A stretch of 64,000 bases of DNA from a virus (Duplodnaviria; Caudoviricetes): IMG/VR virus record IMGVR_UViG_3300037067_013742, positions 1 to 64,000 of that record; one strand, given 5' to 3'. Position 1 is the first letter of the stretch; each line of letters begins with the position of its first letter. A program made the translations under genes and the position numbers. The notes under the pieces were generated by a model. It saw only the letters and a list, made by a program, of their open reading frames with translations. It made no database searches and was not told where the DNA came from. Shown here piece by piece: positions 10,190-62,771 of this stretch.

Positions 10190-10190
10190 T

Positions 10191-41868: not shown

Positions 41869-41952
41869 TTATCTCCTATAAGAGTAGATGCCCTTCTTCC
41901 AGCTCTTGAGGACCTCTTCGGCATCTTCTGCCCGGCGGAAGTAATCCGACTC
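41869..41952 (-). pseudogene. Orphaned 3' end of the SAAGYYIG/SRES gene
   Basis: ESDYFRRAEDAEEVLKSWKKGIYSYRR* parallels ESLRYWKTEEEAQEALDSGKWAAR*. Confidence 0.6.
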
Positions 41953-41988
41953 CTATATTATGGACCACATTTGTGATACTCTCTATTT

Positions 41989-42657
41989 ATGGATACTAAA
42001 GTTTGCATATCTTGTGGTCAAGATCTTCCCTTGACGGAGTACTGGTTTCAGAATAAAAGTTTAGGGAAACTTTGGGCTTCTTGTCGAAAGTGTGCTTCTT
42101 ACCATCGTGTCTATGGAGTATATCCGAATGGAGATCGGATTATTAAACCCCTTTACAAAACCTGTCGAGCTTGTGGTCTGACCTTCCCTCTAAATGCCGA
42201 ACATTTTCCCATTAATATGACGAGGGTTGATCGATATGGCCATCCGCTTGTGGTTTATCGCTCTCTTTGTAAAACGTGTCGCGCTCGTGGTCGTCGCAAG
42301 TCGAATGTTGAAGAGAGACATATGAATGCCTGGGCTCTTTTACAGAATAAGATTAGGGCTATGAAGGAATTAAGTCCTGATCTCGCTTGTTGTCGTTGTG
42401 GTTTCCAGGGCCACCCAAGTGCCTTTGATTTTCATCATCTTGACCCGGTGAAGAAGGAATCTGCGATTGCGCGACTTCTTCGTCAAAGGAGATTCCTTAC
42501 AGAGAAACAATGGACTCGAGTTCTTGCGGAATTGTTAGGATGCGTTCTTCTTTGTAGAAATTGTCACTCTGTAATTCACTGTTCTGTGCTTGAGGATGGT
42601 TCGCCAAATCCTGATTATGTCCATACCACGAAAGGGCCATTGGTCCAGTATCCCTAG
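41989..42657 (+). mobile_element. HNH homing endonuclease, inverted relative to its neighbours
   Basis: Two Zn ribbons; C.RCG...FDFHHLDP...CVLLCRNCH. Confidence 0.85.
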
Positions 42658-42911
42658 CGAGCAGCCCACTTTCCAGAATCAAGAGCCTCTTGTGCCTCTT
42701 CCTCAGTTTTCCAGTATCGTAGGGACTCCCTTGAGTAAGGACCACAGTGATCACACCAGGTTCCGATGTAGTATCCGGCGGCAGACTGACACACCCGGAA
42801 GGGAAGGTCTTTGTCGCACTCGTCACAGTGAGCCATTGTCTTTTCCAGAGAGAGCATTGTTTCGCCGCGAAGCATCTCTACCTCCAAGCGTCGGAATCTG
42901 TTCTTACCCAC
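42654..42911 (-). CDS. Small conserved SAAGYYIG...GPYSRES protein
   Basis: Motifs visible; true start probably downstream of the ORF-track start. Confidence 0.7.
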   Translation of the reverse strand: MGKNRFRRLEVEMLRGETMLSLEKTMAHCDECDKDLPFRVCQSAAGYYIGTWCDHCGPYSRESLRYWKTEEEAQEALDSGKWAAR

Positions 42912-43495
42912 AGGGCAATACCGTGCTCATCTACGTTACCCTCGAACCGCCTGATCGTGTGGGTGTCATCTACAAGAGACCTGAGAAGAACTTCAGCCGT
43001 TGTCTCTCCCCGCTCGTAGGCTAGAGTCTCATAGCCCCAGATGTTGAAGAGGAAGCGTGCGTCTTCTTCGGTTGGCGGCGAATACAACATCTCTCAACCC
43101 TCCACTGTGAGTAGTCTCCAGATGGAGTTGTCATAGTCCATATAGAATGGATACCAGAGGTTGTTGTGCCAGTCACCTCCGATCGAGATGATAAGGAGTC
43201 CTACTGCCACCAGGATGGAGATGTGAGCGGCCGTCCAGATCCCCTCTTCCTTGAGGAATTCTTTTACGACGGGCCACCCACCCAGATAGGTGATCTGTCC
43301 AGTGATGAGGAGTGTAATGCCGGCGACAATAAGACCCATTGCTATGTAAAGCATCTTTATCCCCTTATAAGTCCAAGAGCTATTACTGCCATTACTATCG
43401 TAAGAACTACCGTCTCTACTCCTAGAATCATTATGGCTAGAATCCAGTGAGAAATCCATCTGATTAGTGAGTAGAACATGTTGGTCCTATTGTGT

Positions 43496-43548
43496 TGGTG
43501 CTGGCGACCAGATTTGAACTGGTAAGGGTTTCCCCATAAGTTCCTAGG
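43496..43548 (-). pseudogene. 3' half of a split tRNA-Leu
   Basis: CCTAGGA-ACTTA, variable arm GGGGAAACCC, T-arm, CGCCAGC-A-CCA. Confidence 0.8.
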
Positions 43549-43561
43549 TCTGTCTTCGATA

Positions 43562-43649
43562 TGGTGCCGCAGCCCGGATTCGAACCGGGACGGGATTACT
43601 CCCATGAGCTTCTAAGGCTCACATGTCTCGCCAGTTCCATCACTGCGGC
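43562..43649 (-). tRNA. tRNA-Leu(TAG), long variable arm
   Basis: TGAGC-CTTAGAA-GCTCA; CCA. Confidence 0.9.
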
Positions 43650-44133
43650 GTTTGTTTCTAGCTCCCCACGTCTCGGTTTGCTGATGGCAATTTGGACAGA
43701 GGAGTCTAAGGTTTTCTAATCTGTGGTCAGTATGAATGCCGTTCTTATGATCTACGTGGAGTCTTATCTTGTTACCTAACCAGGAATCAATCCCGCATAT
43801 CTCACAGCGTAGCATCCTGCCGATTTGGACTAGTCGTTTTAGTAGTCTCGATGGTTGATAGGAAGAGTTCTCTGAGAAGACCTCTTCATCTGGGACTGTG
43901 TTCTTTCTTACTGTTTGTCGGACGATCTCGGAGGTTTTCGCAGTCTTTCCCTTTGCCCAACCCTGACCTGTAAAGTGTTCGGTTGGTATTAGTAGGTTTC
44001 TGATCTTGCCATTTATATATCGGTAGTTTCCGCCGGTCCTTTTTAGACCAAGAGTATCTAGGACTTGTCCGATGGATGTGCAGTTTATTACTACTGGAGC
44101 TAGCACCTCGTGGGTATACTTGGATTGTCTCAT
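43612..44133 (-). mobile_element. HNH homing endonuclease (paralog of 10217-10951)
   Basis: LHVDHKNG...DHRLENLRLLCPNCH. Confidence 0.85.
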
Positions 44134-44160
44134 TCACTGATTATAGCATACACGCTTCGC

Positions 44161-44199
44161 TCCCTGAACTTACGTGTATGCCAATTCCACCACGCCAGC
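44161..44199 (-). pseudogene. 5' half of a split tRNA-Leu
   Basis: GCTGGCG-TG-GTGGAATTGGCATACAC-G-TAAGT pairs with the half at 43496-43548. Confidence 0.8.
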
Positions 44200-44899
44200 A
44201 GAAAGAAATGCCCTGCAGCATATCCAGGGCTTAGAGGAGGCTTTGGATCTCTTCGATTATTGTTTTTCTATTGGTTGGTAGTGCAATGAAGACCGGGATT
44301 CCTAGCTTGGAATATCTTCTAATAAGAATTTTATAGGGGTTTTAGCATCCGTAGATGGAGTGATACATTTCAATGAAGGGGTTAGGTGGGCAGCCTTCCT
44401 GATCCAGCAGGGTCTCCAACCTTTCCGACAGTTCGGTATGCCTGCTTACGTTCTTGGGCGTGGGGTTACATTCCTCCAGCTCGTACATTTCTCCATATGC
44501 CAAGACGGTATCTTGGTTGAATGCCCTCAGTAGGGCTTCTGGATTCTCTGGATAGAGTTCCTTAGCCAATGGGACAAGATCCATCTGATTTGCGGCGAGA
44601 TCTTTTTCTTCTGGGGTCATCTTATTTTCCTCAGAGGTTTCCGCAGTTTTCCACTTTTGGAAGGTGGTCATTGCTCTAGCCCTTCCGCATATCCTCTCGC
44701 GAAAACTCCGAGAGAGACTTCTGTCTCTTCGTATGTGTCGTAGTCCCATTCTTCGGCTATTGCATTGCTTACTCCAGAGCTAACCGAGTCGAGAATCTCT
44801 TCGATTCGGTCCTGTGTTTTTTCGTCGAGTTTGACCGCGATATATAGGACTCTCATCTGTATCTCCAGAGTTGTTTAGGTTAGTTATCTTCGAGGAGAG

Positions 44900-45350
44900 A
44901 AAGGGTGACTTCCATCTGTGCTAATGACCCAGATTTACTCGCTATAAGCGCCGTAACAGGTCTCCAACTACACTCCTATAGCGAGTTTCTCCTAGGATTC
45001 AAGCCTTACCTAGGATGGCTGGGCTGCTTAGTAGGAATCGAACCTACCTCTACGTCATCTCACCAGAATACGATAAGCAGCTTTGAGCAGAGTGTGGTAT
45101 CAGGTTCCAGGAGTTCTATTGCAATAAAGGTTACTCCCGGATTACCGAGTCCATGCCCTTGGACTCACCTGTTTGTCTTCTGCATGGGTGAATCACCAGT
45201 CTTCGGCGGGCTATCACCATTACCAGCATCAGACTAGCTATACCACTAGCTAACTACCCCATGGCGCCTTAGCGAGGTAGATTCATTTGGTGAGGGCTAC
45301 TCCTAGACTAAGTCTAGCTGCACCCAGATTAGGTGTTGCTTCGCCCTCAA
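44900..45350 (-). ncRNA. Cluster of structured RNAs including an anticodon-less tRNA mimic (45022-45081)
   Basis: GCTGCTTA/TAAGCAGC stem plus canonical T-arm; several other strong hairpins. Confidence 0.5.
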
Positions 45351-47214
45351 AGACTTTCGAAAGAACTCACGTCCACTGAAGAGGCACCGGCTTACCCTTC
45401 TTTCCGTAGCGATCGGTCGTCTGCTGCGATCCCCCCGAGAAGGGCTGATAGCCACCTGTCCTGACCTCCACGTCCACTCCCGCTGCGTTCTTCACCTTGG
45501 TGGTGGTGACGGGCTTGTAGACCGGATCGAGGGCCACTGGGCGCTTCCCCAGTTCACGAGTGATGGCCTGGTGGAGCTGAGGGCAGAGCTTCTTGTCTGT
45601 CCTGTCCAGAACGGCCTGGAGCTCGTCGTTGTTCAGGGTGGCGATGTGGGCGACACGTCCGGTCGGAAGGGTCACGGTCTTGTTGCTCTTCATGTTGTTC
45701 TCCTGTCTAGTTGAGGTCAGAACTCTCGTTCTCCATGTCTCGGGCCATTCGGATGACTTCTTCGAGCTGAGCGGCGAAAGAAATCAGAACTAGCCCTGCC
45801 GCTGCCAGGAGGGCTCTCTGATCTACCGAGAAGAGCTTCTGCTCGACGGCCATGTCGGTCTCGACCAGGTGCGTGATGCTTCTGGCGGTCTGCTTTACCT
45901 CGGCCAGGAGAAGGGCTACCGGCTCCGTTACGACCTTTGCGTCTTCTTCTCTACTCATCGTCTTCCTCCCATCGACACGGACACTGTGCGTTGTCGCACC
46001 GTTGCTTTGGACACTCACACTGATCGAGCTCTTCTCCGCAGTTCGTACAGTACCGAGGGGGAAGCTCGTCGCATCCTACTTCTTCCCAGAGAGATTCGTC
46101 CCTAGGCATTCTCACCTCCTACCATTACGATAGGAGTCATCGTGACGTCGCTCTGGGGCATTGTGTGGCCGCGAAAGAGACGGAGGTTCTGAACTGGCCT
46201 GTAGAGCTCCACATGAGCATCGAACCGGCGATTGACGATCATCGCATTGCCGCGGGCGAACTCACCGATTCTCTTCTGGAACATCTCGCTGATGGTCATG
46301 TTAGAACCTCCTGAGTTATACGGTCACTTGTTCTCGAAGAAACTTATTCTGCCGGAACCTCCGAGTCGTTCAGGGAATGATAAAGACGATCCCTCAGCAA
46401 ATCTCTCAGAGTGATCTTTCCGTTGGAGCAGTCGTAGCACCGACCTCTGCTGTAGGGGCCGACGTACTCTCCCGTTCCGTGGCACTTGGGGCAGACCTCC
46501 ACGGCGATGCTCTTGGGGTCTTCGATGACCACCGAGAAGTTCTCGTCCGCCCTGACGCAGACGTACTTTCCCAGGAGCTCCGTGGGCGGCTCACCCACCA
46601 GGCGATTCTGCTTCAGGAACTCGCCGACTCTCATCTGCCACCTTGCCAGGTTGAACTTGGTCACGAGCGTTCTCTCTACCTTCATGTTTGACTACCTCCA
46701 TTGAAGTTAGAAAGAATTTATGGGTGGGTTCTTTTGAACGAAGTGGTTGGCGGGCAACACACTATTCTGCTGATAAGACTACTTCCTAGGATCCCAATTA
46801 GCAGGAGCTTCGGGGATATTGGCTTTAGGATGGTCATACCAGCAATTAGTTCTTGGCTTGAGTGATACGCCGGCAGGAGAGAAATGATGTGAGGCTTCAG
46901 TTCGAGGGATGTCTGACTGGAGAGACGCGAGGAGAATTGGATTAGCTTCGGGAGTGCGATAGATTCCCGTCCACCACTTACCTGGATACATTCTCTACCC
47001 TCCTAAGTCTTTTTCTACACCAGTAAAGTGTTTTGGTCTTCTCGAAGCCTGACTTGGTTGTCTTTACGAGAGCCGTCTGCTCTTCGTTATTTACGGAGAT
47101 GACTGTATAACCCACAAGTTCAGTTTTGTGGACATACTCTCCGGGGAGAATTTCGATAGTCTTGAGTCTTTCGATCTCTCTTCTTGTTTCTTCGGCTCGA
47201 GACATTGTTTCTCC

Positions 47215-47294
47215 TGGTGCCCGGTAAGGGACTTGAACCCTTATGTAACCAGTTACCTTTTCTACCGTTTATAGGACGGAGAGGATACCCGGGC
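47215..47294 (-). ncRNA. D-armless tRNA-Ile(TAT)-like RNA
   Basis: Acceptor with ACCA, CCGT-CCTATAA-ACGG, GTAAC-TG-GTTAC hairpin before a canonical T-arm. Confidence 0.75.
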
Positions 47295-47420
47295 GTTTAT
47301 TCTTACGGTCCGAGAGAACATCATTTAGGTTTAGCCGCTTTTGAGACCCTGGCGGCGCATCATTACCTCCATGTGGTTATCTCTTTATTTCTTATACACT
47401 ATATCTAAAAGAAATTCATT

Positions 47421-48005
47421 TTAGAAGGGGCATGTGTCTTCCCGCCAGTTTGAGAAGTTGTGGCAGGAGTTGCAGGCTTCCTCGTTTGAGCCGGGATCAC
47501 AGTTGCTGCAAGATCGGATGGGAGACTCTTCCTCTCTGGGCAGAGCGGCTTCCAGAATGAGCGCTAGGGCCTGAGTAACCCGACCCTCATGGATGTGAAG
47601 GATGAGACTCTTCGCCAGCTCTCGATCGATCAGAGGGGCCTTTACGGGGGACTGATAACGTGCGTTGTCCCTCAGCTCCGCGTTCTCCCTTTCGAAGTTG
47701 CCCAGGTCTCTGGTGAGACGAGATTTAGTCTCTTCCAGGTCTTTGATATACCTCTCTCGAGCGGTTGCCTCTACGTTGGCCTCGTTCAGATTTTGCTGGA
47801 GGCTGTCGACCTTGGTTTCGAGCTCTGCCCTGTCGGGGCCGTACATCTCTGCTCGGATCTTCTCCAGGGCCTTGGTGTAGGCTGGGATATCTCCATCCCT
47901 CAAGGCGAAGACGAGGTCGTTCCCATCCTTCAGTCCGCAGTTGGTCAGTTCGCGGATCATCTTGATGGTAGAGATGGGCTGAAGGATTTTGATCTCACTG
48001 GTCAT
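47421..48005 (-). CDS. L7/L12-CTD-like motif + coiled coil + Cys4 protein
   Basis: IKMIRELTNCGLKDGNDLV; CSNC...CNSC. Confidence 0.65.
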   Translation of the reverse strand: MTSEIKILQPISTIKMIRELTNCGLKDGNDLVFALRDGDIPAYTKALEKIRAEMYGPDRAELETKVDSLQQNLNEANVEATARERYIKDLEETKSRLTRDLGNFERENAELRDNARYQSPVKAPLIDRELAKSLILHIHEGRVTQALALILEAALPREEESPIRSCSNCDPGSNEEACNSCHNFSNWREDTCPF

Positions 48006-48041
48006 TGGAATCTCCTACTTGGTGAGGTCGATCCCCCTCAG

Positions 48042-48188
48042 TCAGTTGTCCGTGATGTCCTCGCCCTCCTCCACTGAGGGGTTGTTGACTTCGATGTTGT
48101 AGTCATACTCGGTGGTGTCGTACCACTCCTCCTCGTCGAACTCCCTCTCGTGGATGGTCTCGAAGATCTCGTCCTGCTCATCCGTCAT
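48042..48188 (-). CDS. 48-aa highly acidic protein (not in the ORF track)
   Basis: MTDEQDEIFETIHEREFDEEEWYD...; SD GAAAGG. Confidence 0.6.
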   Translation of the reverse strand: MTDEQDEIFETIHEREFDEEEWYDTTEYDYNIEVNNPSVEEGEDITDN

Positions 48189-49081
48189 GTGAACCTACCT
48201 TTCTCTTGATTTAGGAGAAACTACTCGTTATCGAGTTCTACGGTTTCTTCTTCTTGGCACTTGCGGAGGGAGATGCTTCTTGCCGCGCCACAAGACCAAC
48301 GACACTTCTTCAGTCGTCCTTTTGTGGGACAAGATTCATCAACCCAGTTGCATATCTCTATGAAGGGACATCCTACTCCCGCGGGGATATTTCCATCTAT
48401 TAGGGAATTAGAATTCAAATGATCTTTCATCTACCTACCTCTTACCAGAGTGATAGTAACAGAAGGATTTCTCTGGGAGGTTTGCATCGAGCAATCGACT
48501 ATCCCCAGGAGATAGAGGACCGCGAAGATGGCTATGATGATGCCGAGAGTTTCAGTGACGCTTCTCATTTGGTGGCCTCTTTGAGTTCTACGGTCTTTCG
48601 GGCGAGACACTCATTACAGCAATAACCAGAGTGCGTTACTTCTCCTCCCATCGGCCAACAGAAAGACTTCCAACATATCTGACAAGTAAACCAAAGAGCT
48701 TTCAAGGTTTTGTTATTGTTAGACATTACACAGGAAGTAGTAAGAACTTATTCTCTTCAGTGAAGACTTGAGGCTTTTATAGAGAAAGGCTGATTGTTAT
48801 AAAGATAGATCGAAGAACCAGTCTTTATGATTATCTTATCGCGCGCCTTTTGGTAGCGCGCTCGAAGGCCAAGCGAAGCGTTAGGCTGAAGAGCAAGCTC
48901 CAAAGGCAAGCGATAGAAGCAGTCTTTCAGTCATTCTCTACAATAAATCCTTTCTATATATAGGGAGTTTCAAAACATCGTGTCAAGTAGATTAGGGTGA
49001 GAAACGGATTGTCGCTGTTTGCGCTTGTATCGCCGTTATGTCTTCCGGCTTTTTATTGCGTCATAGGTAAAAGTCTATCAG

Positions 49082-49441
49082 CTAGATAGATCCTTGCTGT
49101 CTGGCCTTCTGTTTCCAGGCCATATAGCGGTCGGTAGGATTCGTTGGCTCCTCTTCTACTTGTTGAGATGGGAGCTTTGGCTTGGCGATGGTGGTCCTTT
49201 CTGCAAGAAGCTTTCTTACTTCTAGAGAGAGGCGTTTTTGTACATCTGGCGGGAGAACGATTCTAACTCTACTGTCTGTCTCATGGGGAATTGCTAGGAA
49301 AACCCCATACTTCCCCCTCACTATCTTGAGCCCGCGAATCACAATGTCTCCACTGCGGATAGCCACCTGTCCTAGAGACTTCTCTCCATAAGAAAACCAC
49401 TCGATCTCGATGATTTTGGTAGAATTGGTTACTTCGTTCAT
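49082..49441 (-). CDS. SpoVG-like nucleic-acid-binding protein
   Basis: IVIRGLKIVRGKYGVFLAIP; TGnTATACT 6 nt upstream of ATG 49441. Confidence 0.55.
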   Translation of the reverse strand: MNEVTNSTKIIEIEWFSYGEKSLGQVAIRSGDIVIRGLKIVRGKYGVFLAIPHETDSRVRIVLPPDVQKRLSLEVRKLLAERTTIAKPKLPSQQVEEEPTNPTDRYMAWKQKARQQGSI

Positions 49442-52817: not shown

Positions 52818-52850
52818 CGTTATCTCCCTTGTAAGTAGTAGAAGAAACTA

Positions 52851-53321: not shown

Positions 53322-53629
53322 CTAATCCTCCAATCACGGTAAGTAGTAAGAACTCATAGCAAGAAGAGGTTTAGGCCAAGTCTTCCTTTGCGGCCAGATC
53401 CTCCAGTTGTTTGGCCTGGTCGGCGGCAGACATGAGAGCAACGGCAAGATCCCATGCTTCATTGGTAGTCAGATCGAGAGGAATCAGAACTCCATCCCTC
53501 TTGATGTCACAGAGGACATCCGGTCCGTCTCCCCACGTACAAGCAACAGTAATCTCGTCTGCTCGAGTTCGGATAATGGTCATCTGTATCTCCTGGTGAA
53601 CGTTAGAGGAATTCTATGGTAGGAAAGGA

Positions 53630-53655
53630 GGGCAGTTTACACTCATGCCCAGGAG
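53630..53655 (-). promoter_or_regulatory. Small 3'-UTR pseudoknot, copy A
   Basis: CTC-CTGGGCAT-GAG-TGT-AAACTGCCC. Confidence 0.65.
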
Positions 53656-54040
53656 CTTAGATCTTAGAGGGCCTTCCTGCACTTCTCAAATGGGCATCCA
53701 CCATTACAGTGCTTGTCGTAGAGAGCCCAGTCGATCTGTGGCAAGAAGTCTTCTGTGAGGAGGTAGTCGAAGAACTCTGGGCCGAGGTTGTCCACCATCA
53801 CCTCTATAATTTTGTGGGGTAGGTGGTCTTGGAGGATATCTCCTTCGTGCATGTCGGTGAAGTGAGCTTGGATGACGACTGGCTTGACGTGGTTTTCCCA
53901 GGTGCAGGTTGGGGCGCAACGAATGGGGGTGAGGTTTACCTCCACGATGTCTCCGCGAGGGTTCTTTCCCAACCGGCGAGACCATGTCCCCCAATAGGAG
54001 GAGAAGAAGTACGTGTTTTTCATGGAGGATTTAGAAGAAA

Positions 54041-55603: not shown

Positions 55604-56416
55604 GTGAGAACCTTTCTGCTGGCGCTCGGCCAGCTGTGATTGGGACTCGGGAGGTGGTGCAAGCTGGGTCATCGAAGAAGGGACGAAGTCCCTGACCCAG
55701 CGCAGTCACCACCGTGTCCCCAGACTGTCTGTGCCATGCTTAGGTCGAGGCAGGCACACAACCTCGCTCCACGATTCTGATTGCTGGGCGCTTGCATCCC
55801 AGTCTGCCGTTTCGCGGGCAGATCCACCTCTACCTATGGTAGTAGGACAATCACTAATCGTTGAAGTAAAGGAAACTCATCGGGGGCTTTTTCTTTTAGG
55901 CGGGCGAACTGACAGGAATCTCAATCTGATAAGACTTCCTGTCTTAGAGCTATAGGAAAAGTATTAGTACGAGCAGTAGTATAAAATCTTACAGGTGGAG
56001 ATAGGGAGTATATATAAGGATATTAGATCATAAGAGAGTATACAGAGCGGGCACGAATTTGACCCGCCAGGGGCAAATGGAGTGCCGCTGAGGCGAGCGT
56101 TAGCAAGCCGGTGAGGCGACGTATTGATTATGATATTTAAGCTTTAGGAAGAGCACGAGGCCCCAAAGCCGAGTGCGTGCGTATGATATCTATTCTTGGC
56201 GGGGGAACAACAATCATAGCCTAGACTATTATCATTAGAGAGTATTAGTGCGTTATCAAGGTTAATAGCCAAGAATTATCAGTAGATATTCTTCTAGCGG
56301 GCAACAACAACTAATAGCCTTATCAACCTCTGGTAAGAATATCAGTAGAGTGCGTTATAGAGGGAAGAAGGAGAGAAAGCCAGCAACCAAGAGCGTGCGT
56401 GCGTAGAGAAAAGAAT

Positions 56417-56444
56417 GAGCAGTTTTCAGTCAATGCTCAGGACC
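56417..56444 (-). promoter_or_regulatory. Small 3'-UTR pseudoknot, copy B
   Basis: GTC-CTGAGCATT-GAC-TGA-AAACTGCTC. Confidence 0.65.
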
Positions 56445-56762
56445 TGATCAGAACTACTCCTCCAGCTTCCACTCCCTGGTCTTCTCTTCCCAGATGTAGG
56501 TGTAGTACATCTGGGCCACCTCGTGCAGCACCTGGACGGTGAACATGACGTTCTCCCCGTCGTCCTCCTCCAGGATGTCCATCACGACGTACCCACCCTT
56601 GGTCTCGAAGTGGTCGAAGATCTCCTTGGTGGTCGGCATCCCGAACTGGTTCGTCATAATAGCCTCTAACACTCGATATAAGCCCTCGAGTAGGGGGTTA
56701 ACGACCCGGCTCCTTGGTAAGGGAATCGCACCCTCTGTAATGCCGCCTAGGGCCCAAGGAAC

Positions 56763-56788
56763 GAGCAGTTTATCCTGTTGCTCAGCAG
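56763..56788 (-). promoter_or_regulatory. Small 3'-UTR pseudoknot, copy C
   Basis: CTG-CTGAGCAA-CAG-GAT-AAACTGCTC. Confidence 0.65.
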
Positions 56789-56795
56789 CCAAGAA

Positions 56796-57182
56796 CTAGT
56801 CGCAGCTCTGACTGCAGTTCCAGGTTGTCGCCGGCTTCCCGGACGTTGCGCTGATCACATGGGAGAACTGCCAAAAGCCGTAGCCACAGGCATTGTGGTG
56901 GCAACGATCTTGGATCTGGAGAGCCCGGTCCTTGCTGATATGACCCTCAGTGCAGAACTGAACGTCGCGACCACTGTCGTCTACCCAGACCCCGTCCTCG
57001 AGCTTCCTCCAGTTTCCCGTGTCCTCGATCGCCAAGCTCTGCTGCTTCGGGTTCTTCAGCGCGGCCAACACCTCCTCAGGGCTATTTCCCGATGAGTAGA
57101 CCATCTTGTAAAACTTCGTGCTTGTCATGCCAGCAACCATAGCAATCGCTTCCGCACAGATCTCCTTGTTCGACCTTGCCAT
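56796..57182 (-). CDS. Hypothetical protein; C-terminal domain paralogous to 58778-58999
   Basis: GYGF..FSH...SGKPATTW.CS..CD; SD GAGG before MARSNK. Confidence 0.7.
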   Translation of the reverse strand: MARSNKEICAEAIAMVAGMTSTKFYKMVYSSGNSPEEVLAALKNPKQQSLAIEDTGNWRKLEDGVWVDDSGRDVQFCTEGHISKDRALQIQDRCHHNACGYGFWQFSHVISATSGKPATTWNCSQSCD

Positions 57183-57203
57183 ATCAAACCTCATTTGCCA
57201 GAT

Positions 57204-57262
57204 GCTCATCAGTGCAGGACTACTGGCTATACCTGCAGACTCCCTATGAGAGGGAGTTTCGC
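57204..57262 (-). ncRNA. Hammerhead ribozyme (type II)
   Basis: GC-GAAAC-TCCCT/AGGGA-GTC^TGCAGG/CCTGCA-CTGATGA-GC. Confidence 0.85.
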
Positions 57263-57271
57263 TTAAGGGGT

Positions 57272-57919
57272 TTACTTCTCGGGGAGGATGATGGCGTGGT
57301 AGGAAAGACTCTCAGCCTTCTCGGCGAGAATCTTCTTGAGGAGGTGGCGGTGACAGAATGCGCCCTTCCTGCAGTAGCAGGTAAGGACAATCACTCTGCC
57401 TTCCAGAGCGGCCTTGGTGATGATGGTTTCCCATCTGTGCTGGTGTTTGGTCCAGCTCTCCTCCATCATCTTGAGGTAGAGTTTGGTGTACTGCTCCTTG
57501 GACATCGCGCCGCCCAAGTAGCCTTCCACCATCCGCCAGGTCGGGGCGAACATCTGGAGTCCGCTCTTAACCGTGACGTTGATCACCAGCTCATCGGAGG
57601 TGGGCTTGTGGGAGATATGGGCGGTGGTAATCCGCACGGTCCCATAGTTATGGCGGGGCGACTCCCTGGACCATCCGGGCTGATCCAGGTTGTCGTACTT
57701 CTCAGACTTCTTGGCCTGCGCCATAATCTCATCCGAGAAGGGAGTCCCGTCTAGCTCTGGATACCGCTCCTCTTGCGGCTGTCCAGAGGAAGCGATCCGG
57801 ACCCACTCGCGAGCAGTAAGTTCGGAAGCCTTGACCTTGGTCCAGAACTCTGTGCTGTTCCGAACCAATTTCAGATCGATCGCCTGCCTACAGTAGTAGG
57901 CGTTGTTCTCGGTCGCCAC
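57272..57919 (-). CDS. DUF488-like protein
   Basis: FAPTW, Y...Y, LTCYC....CHRHLL. Confidence 0.7.
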   Translation of the reverse strand: MATENNAYYCRQAIDLKLVRNSTEFWTKVKASELTAREWVRIASSGQPQEERYPELDGTPFSDEIMAQAKKSEKYDNLDQPGWSRESPRHNYGTVRITTAHISHKPTSDELVINVTVKSGLQMFAPTWRMVEGYLGGAMSKEQYTKLYLKMMEESWTKHQHRWETIITKAALEGRVIVLTCYCRKGAFCHRHLLKKILAEKAESLSYHAIILPEK

Positions 57920-58738
57920 TAGAACCTCCTCGTGTTGGCGTTCAAGGCCGCAACCATCTCCTCCTCTGAGAAGTGGTTGTAGTTCAACTCAACGTCGAAC
58001 TCATCCCACTCCCCGAGCTCTTCCTCGACCATGTCAGGGATAGTCAGAGCGACCAGGAGCTTGATCTCCAGGTCAGAGATCTCTTCCTGGTTCTCCAGCT
58101 TCTCCCACCAGTAGGGGCCGAGGGAGCTCTCGACGCGGGGGAGCTTGACCGTCCTTTCCAAGACGGTATCTCCCCAGCAATCAATCGCCTCCTCCCTGTT
58201 CTGCCACCAACGGACCAAGTAGGTGCCGATGTAGCAGAGGGCGAGGGTGGCGGCGATCACGAACAGCATCTCAACTACGATCTGCAGAGTGGTCATATAA
58301 GACCATCCTTTCTAGGGGATTGGCTACCCCATAATCTACCTTGAGCGCCCGACACACTTCTATGTCAGGCCCTGCGGTAGCCCTCTTTTTGTCCTTAGAC
58401 AGGGCGAGGAGTTAGTTCCCTGAGAGATCTAGTGGTTGGGGTACATGAACGAGGAGACGATGGCCCCGTAGGCGAGGGACTTGCCCTCCTCCCACGGAGC
58501 CGACTCCTCGATCTTGAGAACGAACTTGTCGCTGTTGCCGCCGCACATCTCAACGATCTCGCCGAGAAGACCGACATCCAGGAGATCGGCATTGAGGAGG
58601 GAGAGCGAACCGTGGATCGAGTTGTACTTGGTCATGTTAGACCCTTTCTTTCGGGGGACTGGTTACCCCATCAGATACCTCTACTTTGGCCTACTATAGG
58701 CTGGGGCCTAGGTTTTCGCACCCCATTATCCGTAGCTT

Positions 58739-58764
58739 GAGCAGTTTAATGTCTTGCTCAGGAC
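58739..58764 (-). promoter_or_regulatory. Small 3'-UTR pseudoknot, copy D
   Basis: GTC-CTGAGCAA-GAC-ATT-AAACTGCTC. Confidence 0.65.
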
Positions 58765-58777
58765 GTTGGGGACGCTA

Positions 58778-58999
58778 TCAGTCGCAGTTGGCGCTGCAGC
58801 ACCAGGTGGTCGCCGGCTTTCCGGACTTGTTGCTTGCCGTGTGGGAGAACTCGTAGAAGCCGTAACCGAACGCGCTGTAGTGGCAGTTATCCTGAACCTG
58901 CCTTGCCTCCTCCTCGGTAATGTGGCCCAGAACACAGAACCTCACGTTACGTCCGCTGGTGTCGATCCAGACCTTCTCGCCGATTTGATTCCATGCCAT
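58778..58999 (-). CDS. Hypothetical protein (first gene of the leftward unit)
   Basis: MAWNQIGEK... with SD GAGG; paralog of the 56796 gene. Confidence 0.7.
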   Translation of the reverse strand: MAWNQIGEKVWIDTSGRNVRFCVLGHITEEEARQVQDNCHYSAFGYGFYEFSHTASNKSGKPATTWCCSANCD

Positions 59000-59721
59000 G
59001 ATAAGACCTCTTCTTCTACGTAGAGCAGTACTACTACGGCACCATGCCATAGCAGCACATACCCTGTCCGTTGGGCCTGCCTGCGGGTATCGCGCCCACC
59101 TACCCCTAAGGGTGATCACTATGATCAGGCAGACTGATGTAGTACAGCATACTGTATAGGCCCCTGCTGTAGGGGGCACATGTAGGACTATAGTAGTACT
59201 AGTGTACACATAGACATACACTCATGTACTACCTGATGCATGGATAGATGTACTACCCATGTAAGCCTGCTTAGTGCAGGTACAGCATGACTACATGATT
59301 TAGGGATTATGTCCTATGCATATATGTACGCAGATGTAGCATATGGCACATGTACATGTAGCTGCTGTGATGCTGGTCATTCAACTTGTGCTTGTTGTAC
59401 TACTACTAGTAGTTAAACATAAGCGCATCCAACACTATAACTAAGGTAGTTATAGGCGAGATCATAGCTCATAGTACTGTTTCATTTATGCGCGCATCCC
59501 TTTCGACATCACGCATAAAGGCTTAGTACTAGTATTGCTTAGATCCAGTAGCGCATGTTCAGGTAGCTACTAGACTCAGATAAGCCAGTTTCTTATCTGA
59601 CAAGCACTCCAGACTGTTATTCACAAGTCTGGTGGTTAACCGCAACCAGAGCTACCGGAGATCAACCCGGGGGCTCCGAACGTGGCAACCATCCTGAGGA
59701 AAATCCCCAAGATACACGTCC

Positions 59722-59839
59722 AGGTACACAGAAATATTTAAGTTTAGGTTTGGTTTTTGGATTGGGCTTTTTTAAGGTACACAGAAATATTCCATTTTAG
59801 GATCTGAATCCCTATCGACTTTAGGTACACAGAAATATT
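59722..59839 (+). repeat. Three exact 17-bp direct repeats AGGTACACAGAAATATT
   Basis: Copies at 59722, 59775 and 59823. Confidence 0.85.
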
Positions 59840-59905
59840 TGGTTTGGGGGAAATTTTCTATTTTTGGATTGGGATTAGTATTGGGAAGATTTGTGATATA
59901 AAGCT

Positions 59906-60508
59906 TTGAGGAGGGTCTTGATGGATAGTGTTCCCGTATATGCTTTTGGTAGTAGTGAACCAGTTACTCGTATTGAGACGGGAAGAGAGTGTGCTCTAAT
60001 AGATAAGTCTTATAGTAAGTTATCTCTTATAGAGAGATTGTGGTGGGCGGTTTCTGGGCGCCGGCCGAAAATAAAAAATCCTTTTGTTCCGGCAGTGACC
60101 TATAAGTTCTATAGTGGGTGTGACTATACTTTCTACCTTATCGAACATCTTCCAAAGGTTTGTGGTGAAGATCCTTCTCCGGAGTCTTACTTAGAAGCCG
60201 TTAGGGGGAAGACTGCAATTCCATTCATTTCTGGAATTAGTTTTTCTTTTAATAAGGGGAAGGGGGTTGTTGAAGGAACCATCCTCTCAATCTTGTCTAC
60301 CGAGTCTCTTACTTATCGGCTTGTAAAGGAGGGGGATTGGGATTTCGTTGGGAAGGTAGCTGATGAATATGGTGGTCTGTCTATAATGGTACTTCCTAAT
60401 TTTAGGATTAATCAGACTTCTTGGGGCATGGGCATTGATGATCTTGTTACAGAAGAGAATTTTACTTTCTCTGCTTCAGAGCCGGGCTTCCTGAAGAAGA
60501 TTCGATAA
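59906..60508 (+). CDS. Hypothetical protein with a tail-tube-like C-terminal part
   Basis: GISFS...GTI...G.GIDD..TEE.FTF.A pattern. Confidence 0.4.
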   Translation: MRRVLMDSVPVYAFGSSEPVTRIETGRECALIDKSYSKLSLIERLWWAVSGRRPKIKNPFVPAVTYKFYSGCDYTFYLIEHLPKVCGEDPSPESYLEAVRGKTAIPFISGISFSFNKGKGVVEGTILSILSTESLTYRLVKEGDWDFVGKVADEYGGLSIMVLPNFRINQTSWGMGIDDLVTEENFTFSASEPGFLKKIR

Positions 60509-60535
60509 TTTTTCCCGCCGAAAAAAGATTTCCTA

Positions 60536-60563
60536 TTGACAACTAGGGTAGCTGAATTAAATT
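60536..60563 (+). promoter_or_regulatory. Sigma70-like promoter of the Hsp20 gene
   Basis: TTGACA-16 nt-TAAATT. Confidence 0.5.
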
Positions 60564-60595
60564 TTTCTCCAGAAAAAAGGAGGAGGTTAAAGGAT

Positions 60596-60934
60596 ATGTT
60601 TACTCTACTAGATCAACTACTAGACTATGAAGACTTTATGAGATTAGGGATGAAGAGGGCTAACTTCTCAGCTGAAGAGAGATGGGAGTTTAATAAAGAT
60701 GGAGATACTGGGGTACTAGAGATAGATCTTCCAGGAGTTAAGAAAGAGGATGTATCTCTGGAGGTGGGTGATGGCCGGCTAGAAATAAAATGGAAGAAGA
60801 AGGGGATTAATCGTAGTCGGTCATTTAAGCTCTCTCCCGAGTATGGTGAGGAAGTTACCGCCAAGATGGAAGATGGAATTCTGGAGATCAGGATGGCCTA
60901 TAGCTCTAAGAGAAAGAAGATAGAGATCGTGTGA
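60596..60934 (+). CDS. Small heat-shock protein (Hsp20/alpha-crystallin)
   Basis: DLPGVKKEDV, RSF.L, A..EDGILEI; AGGAGG upstream. Confidence 0.85.
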   Translation: MFTLLDQLLDYEDFMRLGMKRANFSAEERWEFNKDGDTGVLEIDLPGVKKEDVSLEVGDGRLEIKWKKKGINRSRSFKLSPEYGEEVTAKMEDGILEIRMAYSSKRKKIEIV

Positions 60935-60980
60935 TATGCTGTCCCCGTAAGAGACAGATGTTCTGTCTCGGTGAGGGACA

Positions 60981-61145
60981 ATGCCAGAAATCCTGCCCGA
61001 AGCTCTTTGTTTTGATGATATCTTTCTAGTACCTAGACATTCAGACATTTCTTCTAGAGATGAGGTTGACCTTTCGGTCTCTCTTCCGAAGGGTGTTGCC
61101 CTTGGTCTCCCTATTATCTCTGCTCCTATGACTTGGTCGTTATAA
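60981..61145 (+). pseudogene. Truncated 5' fragment of IMPDH/GMP reductase
   Basis: MPEILPEALCFDDIFLVP...SR.EVDLS...LPIISAPM then TWSL*; own SD. Confidence 0.85.
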
Positions 61146-61169
61146 TTGGGAGTGTGATATGTTCTTCTT

Positions 61170-62771
61170 ATGATTTTAAGAGAATACAGAAAGAAAAGAC
61201 CTAATAATGTACGTATAGATCGCTTTGCTTATGTTCAATGTGACGAATGTGGTAAAGAGTATGAAATCTTGATTTCCAATAGGAAAGCTTCACAGAAAAA
61301 GAAGCTTGGTACTTGTCATGAAGGGTTGGACTATTGCAAGCCTTGTGCTTTTAAGAAAATAGCAGCACCAAAACTTAAGGAGATACAAAAGACTCCTTCT
61401 TGGAAGGAAAAGCAGCATTTGTCACATAAAGGCCAACGTCAGTACCAATGGCGTTTAGATTATAAAGCAGGAAAAGCCTCCACCCCAAGAGGTTATATAC
61501 AAGTTCAAGACGGAAATGGTCGGCTTAGGCCAGAACACGCAATAATAGTTGAGAAGTTGATGGGAAGACTTTTGACTAAAGAGGAACGCATTCATCATAT
61601 CAACCTTGATAAAAGTGACAACAGAGTAGAGAATCTTTGGTGTTGCGTAGACCAAAAGCAACACATGTTGCTTCATGCTCAATTATACGAGATTGCGAAG
61701 GAGCTAATACAAGCAGGAGTAGTTGTATTTAAAGATGGTGTTTATAGCTTAAACACTAGCGGAACCGGTTCTATCTCGTTTGATGATTTTCTCCTTGTAC
61801 CACAGTTTAATGTTGTGAACAGTAGATTAGATACTGATTTAACTACTCGTCTTACCAAGACGAGATTTATAGATCATCCAATTTGTTCCACTAATATGTC
61901 TACTATTACGGAGCTAGAAATGATGAAAGCAATGGACCAATCTGGAAGTGTCGGCTTTCTTCACCGATTTATGTCAATCGAGAAACAGCTAGAGATTATA
62001 TATAAGGCAAAAGAACTTGGGATTCGCTATATTGTTCCATCTCTTGGGGTGAAAGAGCATGACTTTAATAATCTTTCGCTTTTCAATAAAGCTGGGATAG
62101 AAATTATTCTAATTGACGTGGCACATGCTCATTCGACAATGGCTTGTAGACTATTGGAGTATTCTAAAGAACACTTTCCAAATATTGAGGTCATTATTGG
62201 CAATATTTGCACTTCGATTGCCTGCCATGATTTTTGTAGACTTGGTGCAGGTGCTATTAGAGTGGGGATTGGAGGTGGTTCTCAGTGTCTTACTCGCTCA
62301 AATACAGGGCATGGCGTTTCAACTCTACAGTCTATAATTGACTGCTACTCAGTTTCGCGCCATTTTAACGTTCCTCTAATTGCAGACGGTGGTTTTCGAA
62401 ATAGTGGCGATATTGTGAAAGCGTTGGGATTTGGAGCCGAGGCGGTTTCTCTTGGCTGGTTATTATCTGCCTCTTCTGATACTCCTGGTGAGGTTATTAA
62501 TATTAATGGTTCTTTGTTTAAACAGTTTTACGGAATGGCTTCTAAAGAAGCACAGGTGCAATATCTAGGAAAGAGCCGAGAAGATATTTGTCCAGAAGGA
62601 AAGAGTGAGTTGATTATATATCGTGGAGATACTAAAAAAATTCTAGGTGATTTAGTAGGTGGGATAAGAAGTGGTCTTACCTATTCAGGTGCTAGAACGT
62701 TACGGGAATTTCGTGAAAAGGTAAAGGCTCGAAAGATTACTGATCAATCGAAGAGAGAAAGTAAGCTTTAA
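61170..62771 (+). CDS. HNH endonuclease fused to a complete IMPDH/GMP reductase (no CBS domains)
   Basis: HHINLDKSDNRVENL; then FDDFLLVP, IDVAHAH, GIGGGSQCLTR, IADGG, GMAS, PEG, GGIRSGLTYSGA. Confidence 0.9.
   Translation: MILREYRKKRPNNVRIDRFAYVQCDECGKEYEILISNRKASQKKKLGTCHEGLDYCKPCAFKKIAAPKLKEIQKTPSWKEKQHLSHKGQRQYQWRLDYKAGKASTPRGYIQVQDGNGRLRPEHAIIVEKLMGRLLTKEERIHHINLDKSDNRVENLWCCVDQKQHMLLHAQLYEIAKELIQAGVVVFKDGVYSLNTSGTGSISFDDFLLVPQFNVVNSRLDTDLTTRLTKTRFIDHPICSTNMSTITELEMMKAMDQSGSVGFLHRFMSIEKQLEIIYKAKELGIRYIVPSLGVKEHDFNNLSLFNKAGIEIILIDVAHAHSTMACRLLEYSKEHFPNIEVIIGNICTSIACHDFCRLGAGAIRVGIGGGSQCLTRSNTGHGVSTLQSIIDCYSVSRHFNVPLIADGGFRNSGDIVKALGFGAEAVSLGWLLSASSDTPGEVININGSLFKQFYGMASKEAQVQYLGKSREDICPEGKSELIIYRGDTKKILGDLVGGIRSGLTYSGARTLREFREKVKARKITDQSKRESKL

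Follow-up and report, generated by a model that had tools for sequence, protein, structure and literature searches.

HNH endonuclease genes, each lying between a dead gene fragment and a complete diverged copy, at three sites of a large phage genome

The window (the whole stretch of DNA that was analysed, 64,000 nt) belongs to a 229-kb phage genome in which three HNH nuclease genes are each found between a dead gene fragment and a complete, diverged copy, an arrangement from which it would seem that the element supplies its own substitute without any need for splicing. All three ORFs matched HNH or HNH_3 domains together with HNH families of the PHROGs collection, and all lie outside an intron or intein. 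This anatomy had been described in a first-pass annotation of the DNA and was confirmed at each of the three sites, with one correction concerning the position of the break at site 3. Four contigs that derive from other assemblies and samples match both site 1 and site 3 at 100% identity, and the loci are not assembly artefacts since identical sequence is found in such independent contigs.

The GuaC-like gene and its empty site

The features of site 2 (60981-62771) are as follows.

60981..61145, plus strand: 5' remnant of the resident GuaC-like gene (IMPDH/GMP reductase family), matching Pfam IMPDH positions 1-43 (E 9.6e-8)
61131..62770, plus strand: inserted block of 1,640 bp which substitutes for resident codons 51-346 (blastn of L105 against the window)
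61170..62771, plus strand: 533-aa ORF, a Zn-ribbon and HNH_3 endonuclease fused to a complete foreign GuaC-like enzyme (Pfam, PHROGs)

As had been proposed, an HNH nuclease is fused here to a whole GuaB/C behind a truncated resident gene, a 54-aa ORF being followed by one of 533 aa (Pfam). The shorter ORF consists of resident codons 1-50, then four foreign codons and a stop, and its homology to the intact allele ceases at 61130, directly after the ATG of ..SAPM (alignment to L105). In the longer ORF the nuclease (about 61170-61760) and the GuaC-like part (about 61773-62765) are joined in frame, with HNH_3 at aa 123-163 and a complete IMPDH/GMPR domain at aa 202-532 (profile positions 2-343 of 345; Pfam). 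The linker sequence holds no in-frame start codon between the two parts and, on this reading of it, the foreign enzyme (GuaC*) can be made solely as the C-terminal part of a protein that starts with the nuclease.

An empty site, sought among relatives, was found for this locus in contig L105, which carries an uninterrupted, nuclease-free GuaC-like gene of 346 aa (P0001) behind an Hsp20-family gene and ahead of the window's own downstream gene; it is the single resident gene and a second copy is absent. When L105 was compared with the window by blastn, the flanks were 91.5% and 91.3% identical and the interior was unrelated. The junctions are exact, falling on the left after codon 50 and on the right at the start codon of the downstream gene, and the resident stretch displaced between them, 885 bp in L105 and comprising the 3' part of the gene, is missing from the phage genome. 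The source of L105 is JGI sample 3300029288; another contig obtained from that sample matches the window at 100% identity, and this one metagenome sample contains both the empty and the cassette-bearing alleles.

The remnant and the replacement have different affinities. The remnant protein is 100% identical to the N-terminus of P0001 and its DNA is 97-100% identical to L105 (100% over the last ~100 nt), whereas the replacement shares only 35% of its residues with the resident protein and belongs to a different clade. In the phylogeny the resident type and the replacement form separate clades (SH-aLRT 98-99), the fused copy of the window grouping with P0042 apart from the resident type, and P0145, on a long branch, falling on the resident's side. 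Around the break the resident and replacement sequences are unlike at 12 of 30 nt, and the break lies inside a conserved block (rank 34 of 338 windows), in agreement with the claim that it falls at a conserved motif, SAPM.

The identical fusion ORF occurs in contigs from four samples, in two of which the 54-aa remnant is also seen upstream, and more distant fusions of HNH_3 with GuaC are present in P0042 (49% identical) and P0145 (31%), the latter with no upstream remnant seen. An unrelated 93-kb phage contig, L111, has a GuaC 5' remnant (E 3.8e-6) directly upstream of an HNH-GuaC fusion and a possible 3' GuaC remnant (E 0.007) immediately past it; its nuclease is without an N-terminus. At the level of sequence comparison, replacement at site 2 is proven by L105, and the case that a nuclease and a working substitute travelled together and displaced the resident gene is strong here because of the empty-site allele, the exact junctions, the foreign replacement, and the recurrence of the fusion with an upstream remnant in another lineage.

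The split tRNA-Leu and the Zn-ribbon gene

At site 1 (43496-44199, minus strand) the gene which is interrupted is a tRNA, and a relative of its nuclease is found elsewhere in the window.

44163..44199, minus strand: 5' half of a split type II tRNA-Leu (sequence; ARAGORN on the joined halves)
43612..44133, minus strand: HNH homing-endonuclease gene, 173 aa (Pfam HNH; phrog_10822, E 3e-46)
43562..43649, minus strand: complete type II tRNA-Leu(UAG), 88 nt, with CCA encoded (ARAGORN; Rfam tRNA, 51.3 bits)
43549..43561, minus strand: putative vestige of the 3' end of the lost C-terminal-domain coding region of the endonuclease (alignment with L110)
43496..43548, minus strand: 3' half of the split tRNA-Leu (sequence; diverged counterpart at the same place in L110)
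10217..10951, minus strand: full-length paralog of the site-1 endonuclease, 244 aa, in a tRNA array

The nested order of 5' half, HNH gene, intact tRNA and 3' half is the one first described. The 5' half holds the acceptor strand, the D arm, the 5' strand of the anticodon stem and the first loop bases; the 3' half holds the end of the anticodon loop, the 3' strand of its stem, the long variable arm, the T arm, the acceptor strand and ACCA, which places the break in the anticodon loop as had been claimed. Joined in silico, the halves gave a type II tRNA-Leu that was accepted by ARAGORN, with acceptor pairs 7/7 and anticodon-stem pairs 5/5, and they overlap in ..AGG.. with a 1-nt discrepancy, such that the anticodon loop is not exactly rebuildable. 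The intact tRNA-Leu(UAG) is the replacement copy; its stems are not the same as those of the split tRNA, and its anticodon TAG doubles as the stop codon of the HNH gene. This nuclease covers positions 3-161 of the 245 in phrog_10822 and the C-terminal Zn-ribbon/HTH domain of the family is missing. Judging from the alignment of a short stretch, 43549..43561 may be what is left of that domain, as it aligns to the last codons of a Zn-ribbon/HTH ORF in L110, just ahead of the 3' tRNA remnant that the two share. A search for an intact version of the split tRNA returned none, and L110 has no clean empty site; because it carries a different arrangement, with another tRNA-Leu and only the C-terminal nuclease domain, the history of site 1 is more complex than a single insertion.

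The association of this nuclease family with tRNA genes is widespread. Among 65 distinct IMG/VR loci there are 30 whose ORF terminates inside a tRNA on the same strand, shortly ahead of it or past it (tRNA-Leu in 16 of the 30). In most of 80 related loci tRNAs lie within 1.5 kb, and the annotation of the cultured Citrobacter phage Michonne likewise shows an HNH gene next to a tRNA. Remnants of tRNA-Leu 5' ends that stop in the anticodon loop, directly upstream of an HNH gene, were found in L023/L019 and in L064. The full-length paralog lies between tRNA-Leu(CAG) (10993-11069) and tRNA-Leu(GAG) (10191-10267), the latter being entered by its ORF, and no tRNA remnant was seen at that locus. Given the nested anatomy, a nuclease family tied to tRNA-Leu and remnants recurring in two other lineages, site 1 would offer good grounds for displacement by a nuclease and its substitute. 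Some nuclease copies may be decaying rather than active, since that of site 1 is without its C-terminal DNA-binding domain and that of L111 without its N-terminus.

Introns and inteins are the usual home of homing endonucleases, tRNA-Leu introns in the anticodon loop are classical, and inteins are present in relatives of the GuaC-like gene (P0061, P0102, P0146). The interrupted genes could on these grounds still be functional, the insert being removed as a group I/II intron or an intein, or the split tRNA being joined in trans. However, no Rfam intron family was matched at E<=1 in 40000-64000 and no Hint domain was found in the fusion or flanking a nuclease (Pfam), in keeping with the splice-free layout first proposed. 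Furthermore, the gap at site 1 is filled by the ORF and the tRNA with about 30 and 13 nt left over, the 885-bp 3' part of the resident GuaC-like gene is gone, and the orphan at site 3 carries a stop and a frameshift. Removal of the inserts by splicing is therefore highly improbable.

The third site (41869-42911) contains a nuclease gene on the strand opposite to that of the surrounding genes.

42654..42875, minus strand: intact Zn-ribbon gene, 73 aa (family profile match, 108 bits)
41989..42657, plus strand: HNH endonuclease gene, 222 aa (phrog_2255, E 1.6e-25; weak Pfam HNH match)
about 41978..41869, minus strand: orphan 3' end of a diverged member of the Zn-ribbon family (hmmsearch, profile positions about 41-70)

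The Zn-ribbon family comprises proteins of ~70 aa with the consensus ..CxxC..SAAGYYIGTxCxxCGPYSRES.. (39 homologs, of which 36 were aligned). The stop of the intact gene overlaps that of the convergent HNH gene (CTAG), whose product has two N-terminal Cys4 ribbons and no relatives in IMG/VR or among 5.8 billion proteins. When the family profile was run against all 10,717 six-frame segments of the genome, the orphan was the top non-self match (E 0.11), and its score rose to 23.4 bits (E 3e-5) once a 1-nt deletion in the YSR codons and an in-frame TAA, by which it is disabled, were bridged with X; the ribosome-binding site of the next gene remains directly adjacent to it. By profile search the orphan is homologous to the family of the intact copy. 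The first-pass annotation had the break at RES, and this part does not stand, as the orphan includes CGP and the break must lie upstream of it, inside the second CxxC. No empty-site relative was found, the corresponding slot in L110 being filled by an unrelated 110-aa gene. There is no sign that the intact copy came in with the nuclease, and nothing ties the HNH gene to the Zn-ribbon family, as it has no relatives; by its anatomy alone, site 3 may weakly suggest displacement by a nuclease and its substitute.

A further explanation involves no coupling at all: nuclease genes of the ordinary free-standing kind would have inserted, through a rare event of illegitimate recombination, into or next to one of two pre-existing paralogs, leaving accidental scars and a replacement that is only apparent. 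At site 3, with neither an empty-site relative nor relatives of the HNH gene, a tandem paralog which predates the nuclease is compatible with the data; the Zn-ribbon family includes proteins of ~144 aa (P0039, P0040) that are maybe tandem fusions, and phage tRNA clusters hold several tRNA-Leu genes. However, at site 2 the relative has one resident gene with no second copy and the replacement is from another clade, tandem paralogs cannot yield site 1 because an intact tRNA sits between the halves, and both the HNH-GuaC fusion and the HNH-tRNA-Leu unit recur across lineages that are 31-56% identical. We consider accidental scarring an unlikely account of the three sites.

A possible route of replacement and its precedents

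Homing endonucleases are familiar in conserved genes in two lifestyles, either removed by splicing with an intron or intein or placed beside their target. The arrangement described here is probably the result of free-standing HNH homing-endonuclease genes which, coupled to a working copy of the target gene, jointly displaced the resident allele. During co-infection, the nuclease would cut the resident allele within conserved sequence, namely in the anticodon loop of the tRNA, in the ..SAPM|DTVT.. codons of the GuaC-like gene, or in the CxxCGPYSRES codons of the Zn-ribbon gene. These candidate cut sites, like the presumed resistance of the replacements, are deduced from the positions at which the remnants end. 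The repair template would be a donor genome with the nuclease gene beside a diverged allele that the nuclease leaves uncut and, for want of homology on one or both flanks, one junction or more would arise where the break lies, through illegitimate, one-sided repair of the double-strand break. A fragment of the resident gene would stay behind, so that the remnants may be by-products of such repair rather than a designed strategy, and splicing would not be needed because the cassette's copy supplies the function. If the cassettes are still mobile, the remnants and flanks could later provide the homology that ordinary homing into an intact allele requires.

This layout was not found described for any phage in the literature, and a similar one is known from fungal mitochondria, where mobile ORFs (mORFs) have produced gene hybrids in atp6 of Allomyces macrogynus, atp6, atp9, cox2 and nad3 of Glomus, atp9 of Rhizopus and cox2 of Mortierella (PMC3630166). 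The first-pass annotation had listed splicing and a position beside the target as the known strategies and missed two close precedents, of which the mORFs are one and illegitimate, one-sided homing in T4 (below) is the other. They too are intron-free endonuclease ORFs in conserved genes, and with them comes a foreign version of the part that is displaced, in many cases in the ORF's own reading frame; the native part remains as a remnant, which resembles the gene of close relatives far more than the inserted copy does (PMC3630166). A foreign copy with a native remnant is seen at sites 1 and 2, and at site 3 by anatomy only; the difference in affinity is that of site 2 (100% against 35%, protein). 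However, mORFs belong to eukaryotic organelles, encode LAGLIDADG or GIY-YIG enzymes and replace the C-terminal part alone, which is placed upstream of the ORF (PMC3630166), whereas the phage elements encode HNH enzymes with an entire gene downstream, for a tRNA or for a full-length GuaC-like enzyme, and a remnant that is usually the 5' part. They are a variant of the mORF type rather than a member of it, because they bring the gene complete, and the native 5' part remains separate from it.

Among phages, intronless homing by the free-standing T4 enzymes SegB, SegE, SegF, SegG and MobE, with co-conversion of flanks, offers another comparison (PMC2330249, PMC2790892, PMC2988022). Those genes are likewise free-standing, present in some related phages and not in others (as at site 2, where L105 lacks the nuclease gene at the same locus), and they adjoin a resistant target allele (PMC2330249, PMC2790892, PMC2988022). 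In the T4 cases, however, the target gene is whole and only flanking markers are converted, and neither a remnant with a full replacement, nor overlap of an ORF with a tRNA, nor fusion to an enzyme is reported. SegB is encoded within a tRNA cluster and has tRNA genes as its targets, and the site-1 family is similarly located among phage tRNA genes, but SegB is a GIY-YIG enzyme cutting near the 3' end of tRNA genes and the enzymes here are HNH. Free-standing nucleases have also split functionally critical gene regions without splicing, as with mobE in nrdA of Aeh1, mobA in T4 gene 39/60 and seg in gene 43; there both pieces are functional and their products reassemble (PMC2988022), whereas the pieces in this phage are dead and the function falls to a separate complete copy. 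One-sided homing (Parker, Belisle and Belfort 1999), as summarised in PMC2988022, involves homology on one side, a microhomology junction on the other and long resection in T4, and has been proposed as the route of mobile elements to ectopic sites. It predicts the layout of site 2, although it was shown with a T4 intron and engineered substrates, in which a replacement gene was not carried.

It has also to be considered whether the units are kept mainly for the benefit of the phage, the nuclease spreading or amplifying its cargo (tRNA variants which escape host anticodon nucleases, or a nucleotide-salvage enzyme) and the remnants being side effects. Excerpts of PMC10448857 describe nuclease genes that flank and mobilise cargo in phages, and in ICP1-like phages nuclease genes and useful neighbours co-inherited at the boundaries of genetic exchange, with no description, in those excerpts, of target-gene remnants, translational fusions or nested tRNAs; likewise, according to the abstract of PMC13096335, T4-type SegB promotes the amplification of an anti-defence locus that contains tRNAs. 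Conservation of the fusion and of the nesting across deep divergence would also agree with such a benefit. However, neither for the tRNAs nor for the GuaC-like gene is there a link to a host defence, and an advantage of this kind would add to joint displacement by nuclease and substitute, with which it is compatible; as the main reason for the arrangement it seems quite unlikely.

If joint displacement did occur, phages would have a third way for a homing endonuclease to occupy a conserved gene without killing the host genome, namely by bringing the spare. It would offer a concrete mechanism for the wholesale swap of conserved phage genes by distant homologs and an explanation for gene fragments found beside nuclease genes. 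A broader proposition, which we hold tentatively and at somewhat less than even chances, is that self-compensating mobile elements form a class of their own in large phages, in which a homing nuclease, obligately welded to a working gene, spreads by destroying the resident allele at a conserved site and substituting its own, the weld being either the HNH-GuaC translational fusion or a tRNA-Leu nested in frame within the nuclease ORF. Such elements would promote the exchange of conserved genes for xenologs with no splicing machinery involved. Loss of the nuclease gene would tend to entail loss of a useful gene, since GuaC* is fused to the nuclease and the tRNA-Leu overlaps or lies in frame inside its ORF, and the two architectures suggest how a selfish nuclease gene can guard against its own deletion. 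The nuclease-enzyme fusion has been retained over 31-49% sequence identity, tRNA genes lie within or overlap the nuclease ORFs, and for the GuaC case a natural empty-site allele exists.

Cassette layout and genome setting

The 64-kb window is the first part of a 229,064-bp IMG/VR virus record which is rated complete, carries 28 tRNA genes and has no DNA relatives among 50,697 deposited phage genomes. Three of its six HNH-type genes lie within the stretch flagged in the first-pass annotation, and the cassette layouts described there were confirmed: at a tRNA-Leu (site 1, 43496-44199), a GuaC-like gene (site 2, 60981-62771) and a small Zn-ribbon gene (site 3, 41869-42911), a remnant is followed, on the nuclease's own strand, by the nuclease gene and then by an intact copy. 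An assembly artefact was rejected because the sequence is identical in contigs of independent assemblies. The claim that no splicing is involved was also upheld, as an intron or intein reading was ruled out by the absence of any intron model match in Rfam at E<=1 and of any Hint domain in Pfam. When the left and right flanks of the six HNH genes were compared pairwise by tblastn, the site 2 duplication alone stood out (E 3e-7), and no flanking duplicate was detected at the HNH genes at ~141.9 kb and 9429-9992; the random controls were noisy, and this comparison is therefore too insensitive for short remnants. Promoter and terminator scans gave background levels.

An empty allele of the GuaC-like gene

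At site 2 a 54-aa ORF, corresponding to positions 1-43 of the IMPDH/GMP reductase profile, precedes a 533-aa ORF in which an HNH_3 domain leads into a complete IMPDH/GMPR domain, an anatomy that bears out the earlier reading of an HNH nuclease fused to a whole GuaB/C enzyme behind a truncated resident copy. NCBIfam assigns the replacement and the resident type alike to the CBS-less IMPDH/GMP reductase family, with scores under all equivalog cut-offs. The sole longer protein returned by the 54-aa remnant query, P0001 (346 aa), is 100% identical across the remnant and is encoded on L105, a co-occurring relative contig of 1,849 bp with the same gene order as the window: a Hsp20-family gene, the intact GuaC-like gene and the downstream gene. 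L105 lacks the endonuclease, and its empty-site allele is the decisive result for this site.

The left flank of L105 (139-735) aligns with window 60534-61130 at 91.5% identity and the right flank (1621-1849) with 62771-62999 at 91.3%; where L105 has 885 bp between the two flanks (codons 51-346), the window has 1,640 bp of unrelated sequence. On the left, the junction lies directly 3' of the ATG in ..SAPM and the right junction at the start codon of the next gene. A break at a conserved SAPM motif had been proposed, and among 338 nine-residue windows the block concerned ranks 34th for conservation, M50 being invariant; the resident and replacement alleles differ at the break in 12 of 30 nucleotides. 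Over its last ~100 nt the remnant matches L105 at 100% identity, so that either the event was recent or the remnant has been refreshed by recombination. The resident and replacement enzymes are 35% identical, and the phylogeny suggested as a check (a quick maximum-likelihood tree) separates them by a branch with an SH-aLRT of 99. Just upstream of the Hsp20-family gene the window also carries a ~740-bp block (59792-60533, plus strand) that is absent from L105 and contains a 200-aa ORF with no Pfam or PHROG match; the preceding 99 nt are 100% identical between window and L105.

Between the HNH domain and the enzyme's conserved N-terminus there is no in-frame ATG, GTG or TTG, and the enzyme must therefore be made as a fusion. 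A four-codon leader ORF (MFFL, stop; 61159-61173, plus strand) with its own GGGAG ends in a TGA that overlaps the ATG of the fusion (ATGA), an arrangement which suggests translational coupling. The fusion is no accident of this locus; among 1.84 billion representatives, searched exhaustively, there were two other HNH_3-GuaC fusions, P0042 (49% identical) and P0145 (31%, full length), and relatives of the HNH domain itself were found only by this search and not by a close-pattern scan of IMG/VR. P0042 is encoded on a 93-kb phage contig (L111), where a 42-aa fragment directly upstream of the fusion matches GuaC profile positions 6-42 (E 3.8e-6) and differs in sequence from the fused copy, a possible 3' fragment (positions 312-330, E 0.007) follows directly after it, and the nuclease has lost its first ~55 residues. 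No nuclease gene was found near P0043 or P0044, the nearest unfused relatives of the replacement enzyme. Other relatives (P0061, P0102, P0146 and P0050) are interrupted at other conserved positions, by inteins at ~178 of the profile or by a LAGLIDADG insert after ~269, and the phage GuaC-like enzyme family is a recurrent target of selfish elements.

The fusion ORF is identical in the assemblies of four samples, with the 54-aa remnant upstream in two of those contigs. Two independent fusion-bearing contigs, L116 and L118, end 100 and 69 nt upstream of the fusion, within the remnant, which is where cassette-bearing and cassette-free alleles would branch an assembly graph.

The split tRNA-Leu and its nuclease family

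Features of site 1
44199-44163, minus strand: 5' half of a tRNA-Leu
44133-43612, minus strand: HNH ORF
43649-43562, minus strand: complete 88-nt tRNA-Leu(UAG), followed by 13 nt
43548-43496, minus strand: 3' half of the tRNA-Leu

The two halves form 7/7 acceptor-stem and 5/5 anticodon-stem pairs and are called as a type II tRNA-Leu when joined, in agreement with the description of an HNH gene and an intact tRNA-Leu nested within a split one. With ..TTCAGG at the end of the left half and CCTAGGA.. at the start of the right one, the two overlap by AGG, or by five to six bases if one indel is allowed; the original anticodon loop cannot be exactly rebuilt from the halves, and all that we infer from the overlap is that it would fit a filled-in staggered cut. 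The anticodon TAG of the intact tRNA-Leu(UAG) forms the end of the nuclease ORF. The site leaves no space for a ribozyme, and none of the intron models gave a match. The nuclease is a phrog_10822 member without the last ~84 profile positions; a full-length paralog, in the main tRNA array, has a tRNA-Leu gene on either side and likewise overruns the downstream one. No intact version of the split tRNA was found in IMG/VR, either with a pattern spanning both halves or with the 3' half alone. Elsewhere in the window, four clustered tRNA-Leu genes (CAA, UAA, GAG and CAG; 10025-11069, minus strand) measure only 75-77 nt and have a short variable arm, whereas the 88-nt tRNA-Leu(UAG) and the split tRNA are of type II.

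In nine close relatives of the nuclease from IMG/VR, a tRNA-Leu(UAG or GAG) mostly overlaps the gene or lies immediately downstream. A profile-based scan for the family gave 80 loci, 65 of them distinct, and in 30 of the 65 the ORF ends in, before or beyond a same-strand tRNA (stopping inside it in 14, just before it in 12, and reading through it in 4); ten of the 12 that stop just before do so within 2-7 nt. The tRNAs at these ends are tRNA-Leu in 16 of 30 cases, and tRNA-Leu accounts for 75 of the 318 distinct tRNAs within 1.5 kb of genes of the family. The annotation of the cultured Citrobacter phage Michonne has an HNH CDS that stops one base short of a tRNA-Leu. These gene arrangements tie the family to tRNA-Leu genes.

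The same scar as at site 1 recurs in two other lineages. One (L023/L019) has a 5' tRNA-Leu half, ~80% like the 5' half of the downstream intact tRNA, which breaks off within the anticodon loop, only a few bases ahead of the nuclease start codon; the other (L064) has a tandemly duplicated tRNA 5' part ending ..CTTA, with a D arm identical to that of the downstream intact tRNA-Leu(UAA) and a different anticodon stem. L064 also carries, two tRNAs downstream of the nuclease gene (2217-2300), a type II tRNA-Leu(CAA)-like gene without a 5' acceptor strand that was uncalled by ARAGORN. Five of the 318 tRNAs near relatives of the nuclease have an anticodon loop of the wrong length (ARAGORN 'tRNA-???': L060 978-1046, L028 507-586, L101 1367-1443, L051 2338-2410 and L063 714-783), one example being a tRNA-Leu(UAG)-like gene with one loop base missing; these may be repair scars at the same site.

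A tRNA-Leu(UAG) stands in frame inside nuclease ORFs at L025 (=L016) 1501-2283, L029 (=L018) 1501-2277 and L110 106-444, the reading frame running from the HNH domain across the entire tRNA and on into the conserved Zn-ribbon/HTH domain (72-73 aa); the frame is preserved though tRNAs and spacers differ among loci, and in L110 only the tRNA and C-terminal domain remain. L110, a 91%-type relative of the window, is arranged differently at site 1. The 5' end of the upstream gene is followed there by a 76-nt tRNA-Leu(UAG) and the in-frame Zn-ribbon/HTH domain of this nuclease family; a diverged counterpart of the 3' tRNA remnant comes next, and after it the 40-aa gene also present in the window. 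The 13 nt that follow the intact tRNA of the window align with the last codons of the L110 domain, suggesting that the window cassette once had this C-terminal domain and has since lost it. The comparison suggests that both strains descend from older insertions at site 1.

The Zn-ribbon gene, mechanism and known systems

The intact gene at site 3 encodes 73 aa from an ATG at 42875 and belongs to a family of ~70-aa proteins with an invariant CxxC..GYYxG..CxxCGPxSR. The neighbouring plus-strand ORF is an HNH nuclease (phrog_2255, E 1.6e-25), the stop of which shares CTAG with the stop of the small gene. The orphan segment had been taken for a diverged 3' end of this gene, broken at RES. Against 10,717 six-frame segments of the genome, the family profile placed the orphan first after the gene itself (E 0.11); upstream of it, in another frame, stands ..YHKCGP and then a stop, with a spacing of 8 nt vs 9 in the family, and bridging this with three X gave 23.4 bits (E 3e-5). 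The orphan is thus a real pseudogene end that spans roughly the final 30 residues; a stop and a 1-nt deletion disable it, and it still abuts the ribosome-binding site of the next gene. The homology therefore stands but the position of the break does not, as the orphan starts upstream of CGP.

A first metagenome scan for empty alleles of sites 1 and 3, with a neighbouring 121-aa ORF as query, gave no match; an empty site 3 would be expected to have a Zn-ribbon gene ending ..ESDYFRRAEDAEEVL... A second scan gave only L110, which is rearranged at both sites and not empty, so that the comparison with relatives did not yield the empty alleles here. In L110 an unrelated 110-aa gene occupies the place of the whole site 3 block (window 42872-41877, with the small gene, the HNH and the orphan). 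No relatives of the site 3 HNH were found in IMG/VR or among 5.8 billion proteins. The anatomy fits the common pattern but does not imply that the intact copy arrived with the nuclease; it is possible that the two were tandem paralogs, one of which was later hit by the nuclease gene.

The interpretation of splice-free cassettes supplying a replacement is largely right at sites 1 and 2, on the strength of anatomy and recurrence and, for site 2, of the empty site; at site 3 it is no more than possible. The reading with most support is that free-standing nucleases, each coupled to an allele that it would not cut, spread by homing and that one junction or more formed at the break, the cutting and the resistance being presumptive. 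At site 2, repair would have been one-sided, with the downstream gene as the side of homology, where ~0.9 kb of resident DNA would have been lost, and the other side closed by an illegitimate junction at the putative cut. A T4 intron given homology on just one side has been shown to take this route, with microhomology junctions and long resection, and the route was proposed to give access to ectopic sites (review PMC2988022). Fragments are kept on both sides at site 1 and in L111. Once established, remnant and flanks would permit ordinary homing into intact alleles.

The closest described case is that of the mobile endonuclease ORFs of fungal mitochondria (Allomyces atp6, Glomus atp6/atp9/cox2/nad3; PMC3630166), which carry a foreign C-terminal gene part, often in frame, the native C-terminus persisting as a downstream remnant near-identical to that of a sister species (PMC3630166). 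Free-standing nucleases of phages convert flanking markers; SegB, located in a tRNA cluster, cuts tRNA genes (PMC2330249), and others split genes whose pieces reassemble (PMC2988022) or bracket cargo genes (PMC10448857). In the open-access papers searched, three things were not found described: a phage nuclease gene with a dead piece of its target on one side and a complete substitute on the other, an HNH-GuaC fusion, and a tRNA gene lying in frame within a nuclease ORF. The concept is a phage version of a known principle and not a separate category.

Further nuclease and RNA features were observed in the genome. A 258-aa LAGLIDADG-like ORF lies at 33956-34732 (minus strand), and no RtcB remnants were detected around it, the RtcB profile having no match at E<=1 anywhere in the genome. 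A degenerate tRNA-Ser(GCU)-like sequence at ~8889-8975 (minus strand) was uncalled by ARAGORN and Rfam, and a ~230-nt RNA at ~12135-12371 (minus strand), with a tRNA-like acceptor and T arm, matches the tmRNA model at its 3' end only (E 8e-4). A type II hammerhead ribozyme is found at 57196-57264 (minus strand; 43.2 bits vs a gathering score of 37, E 6e-6), and at 205081-205153 of the whole genome (minus strand) there is a tRNA with anticodon UUA, called 'tRNA-Stop' by ARAGORN, that reads the TAA stop codon.
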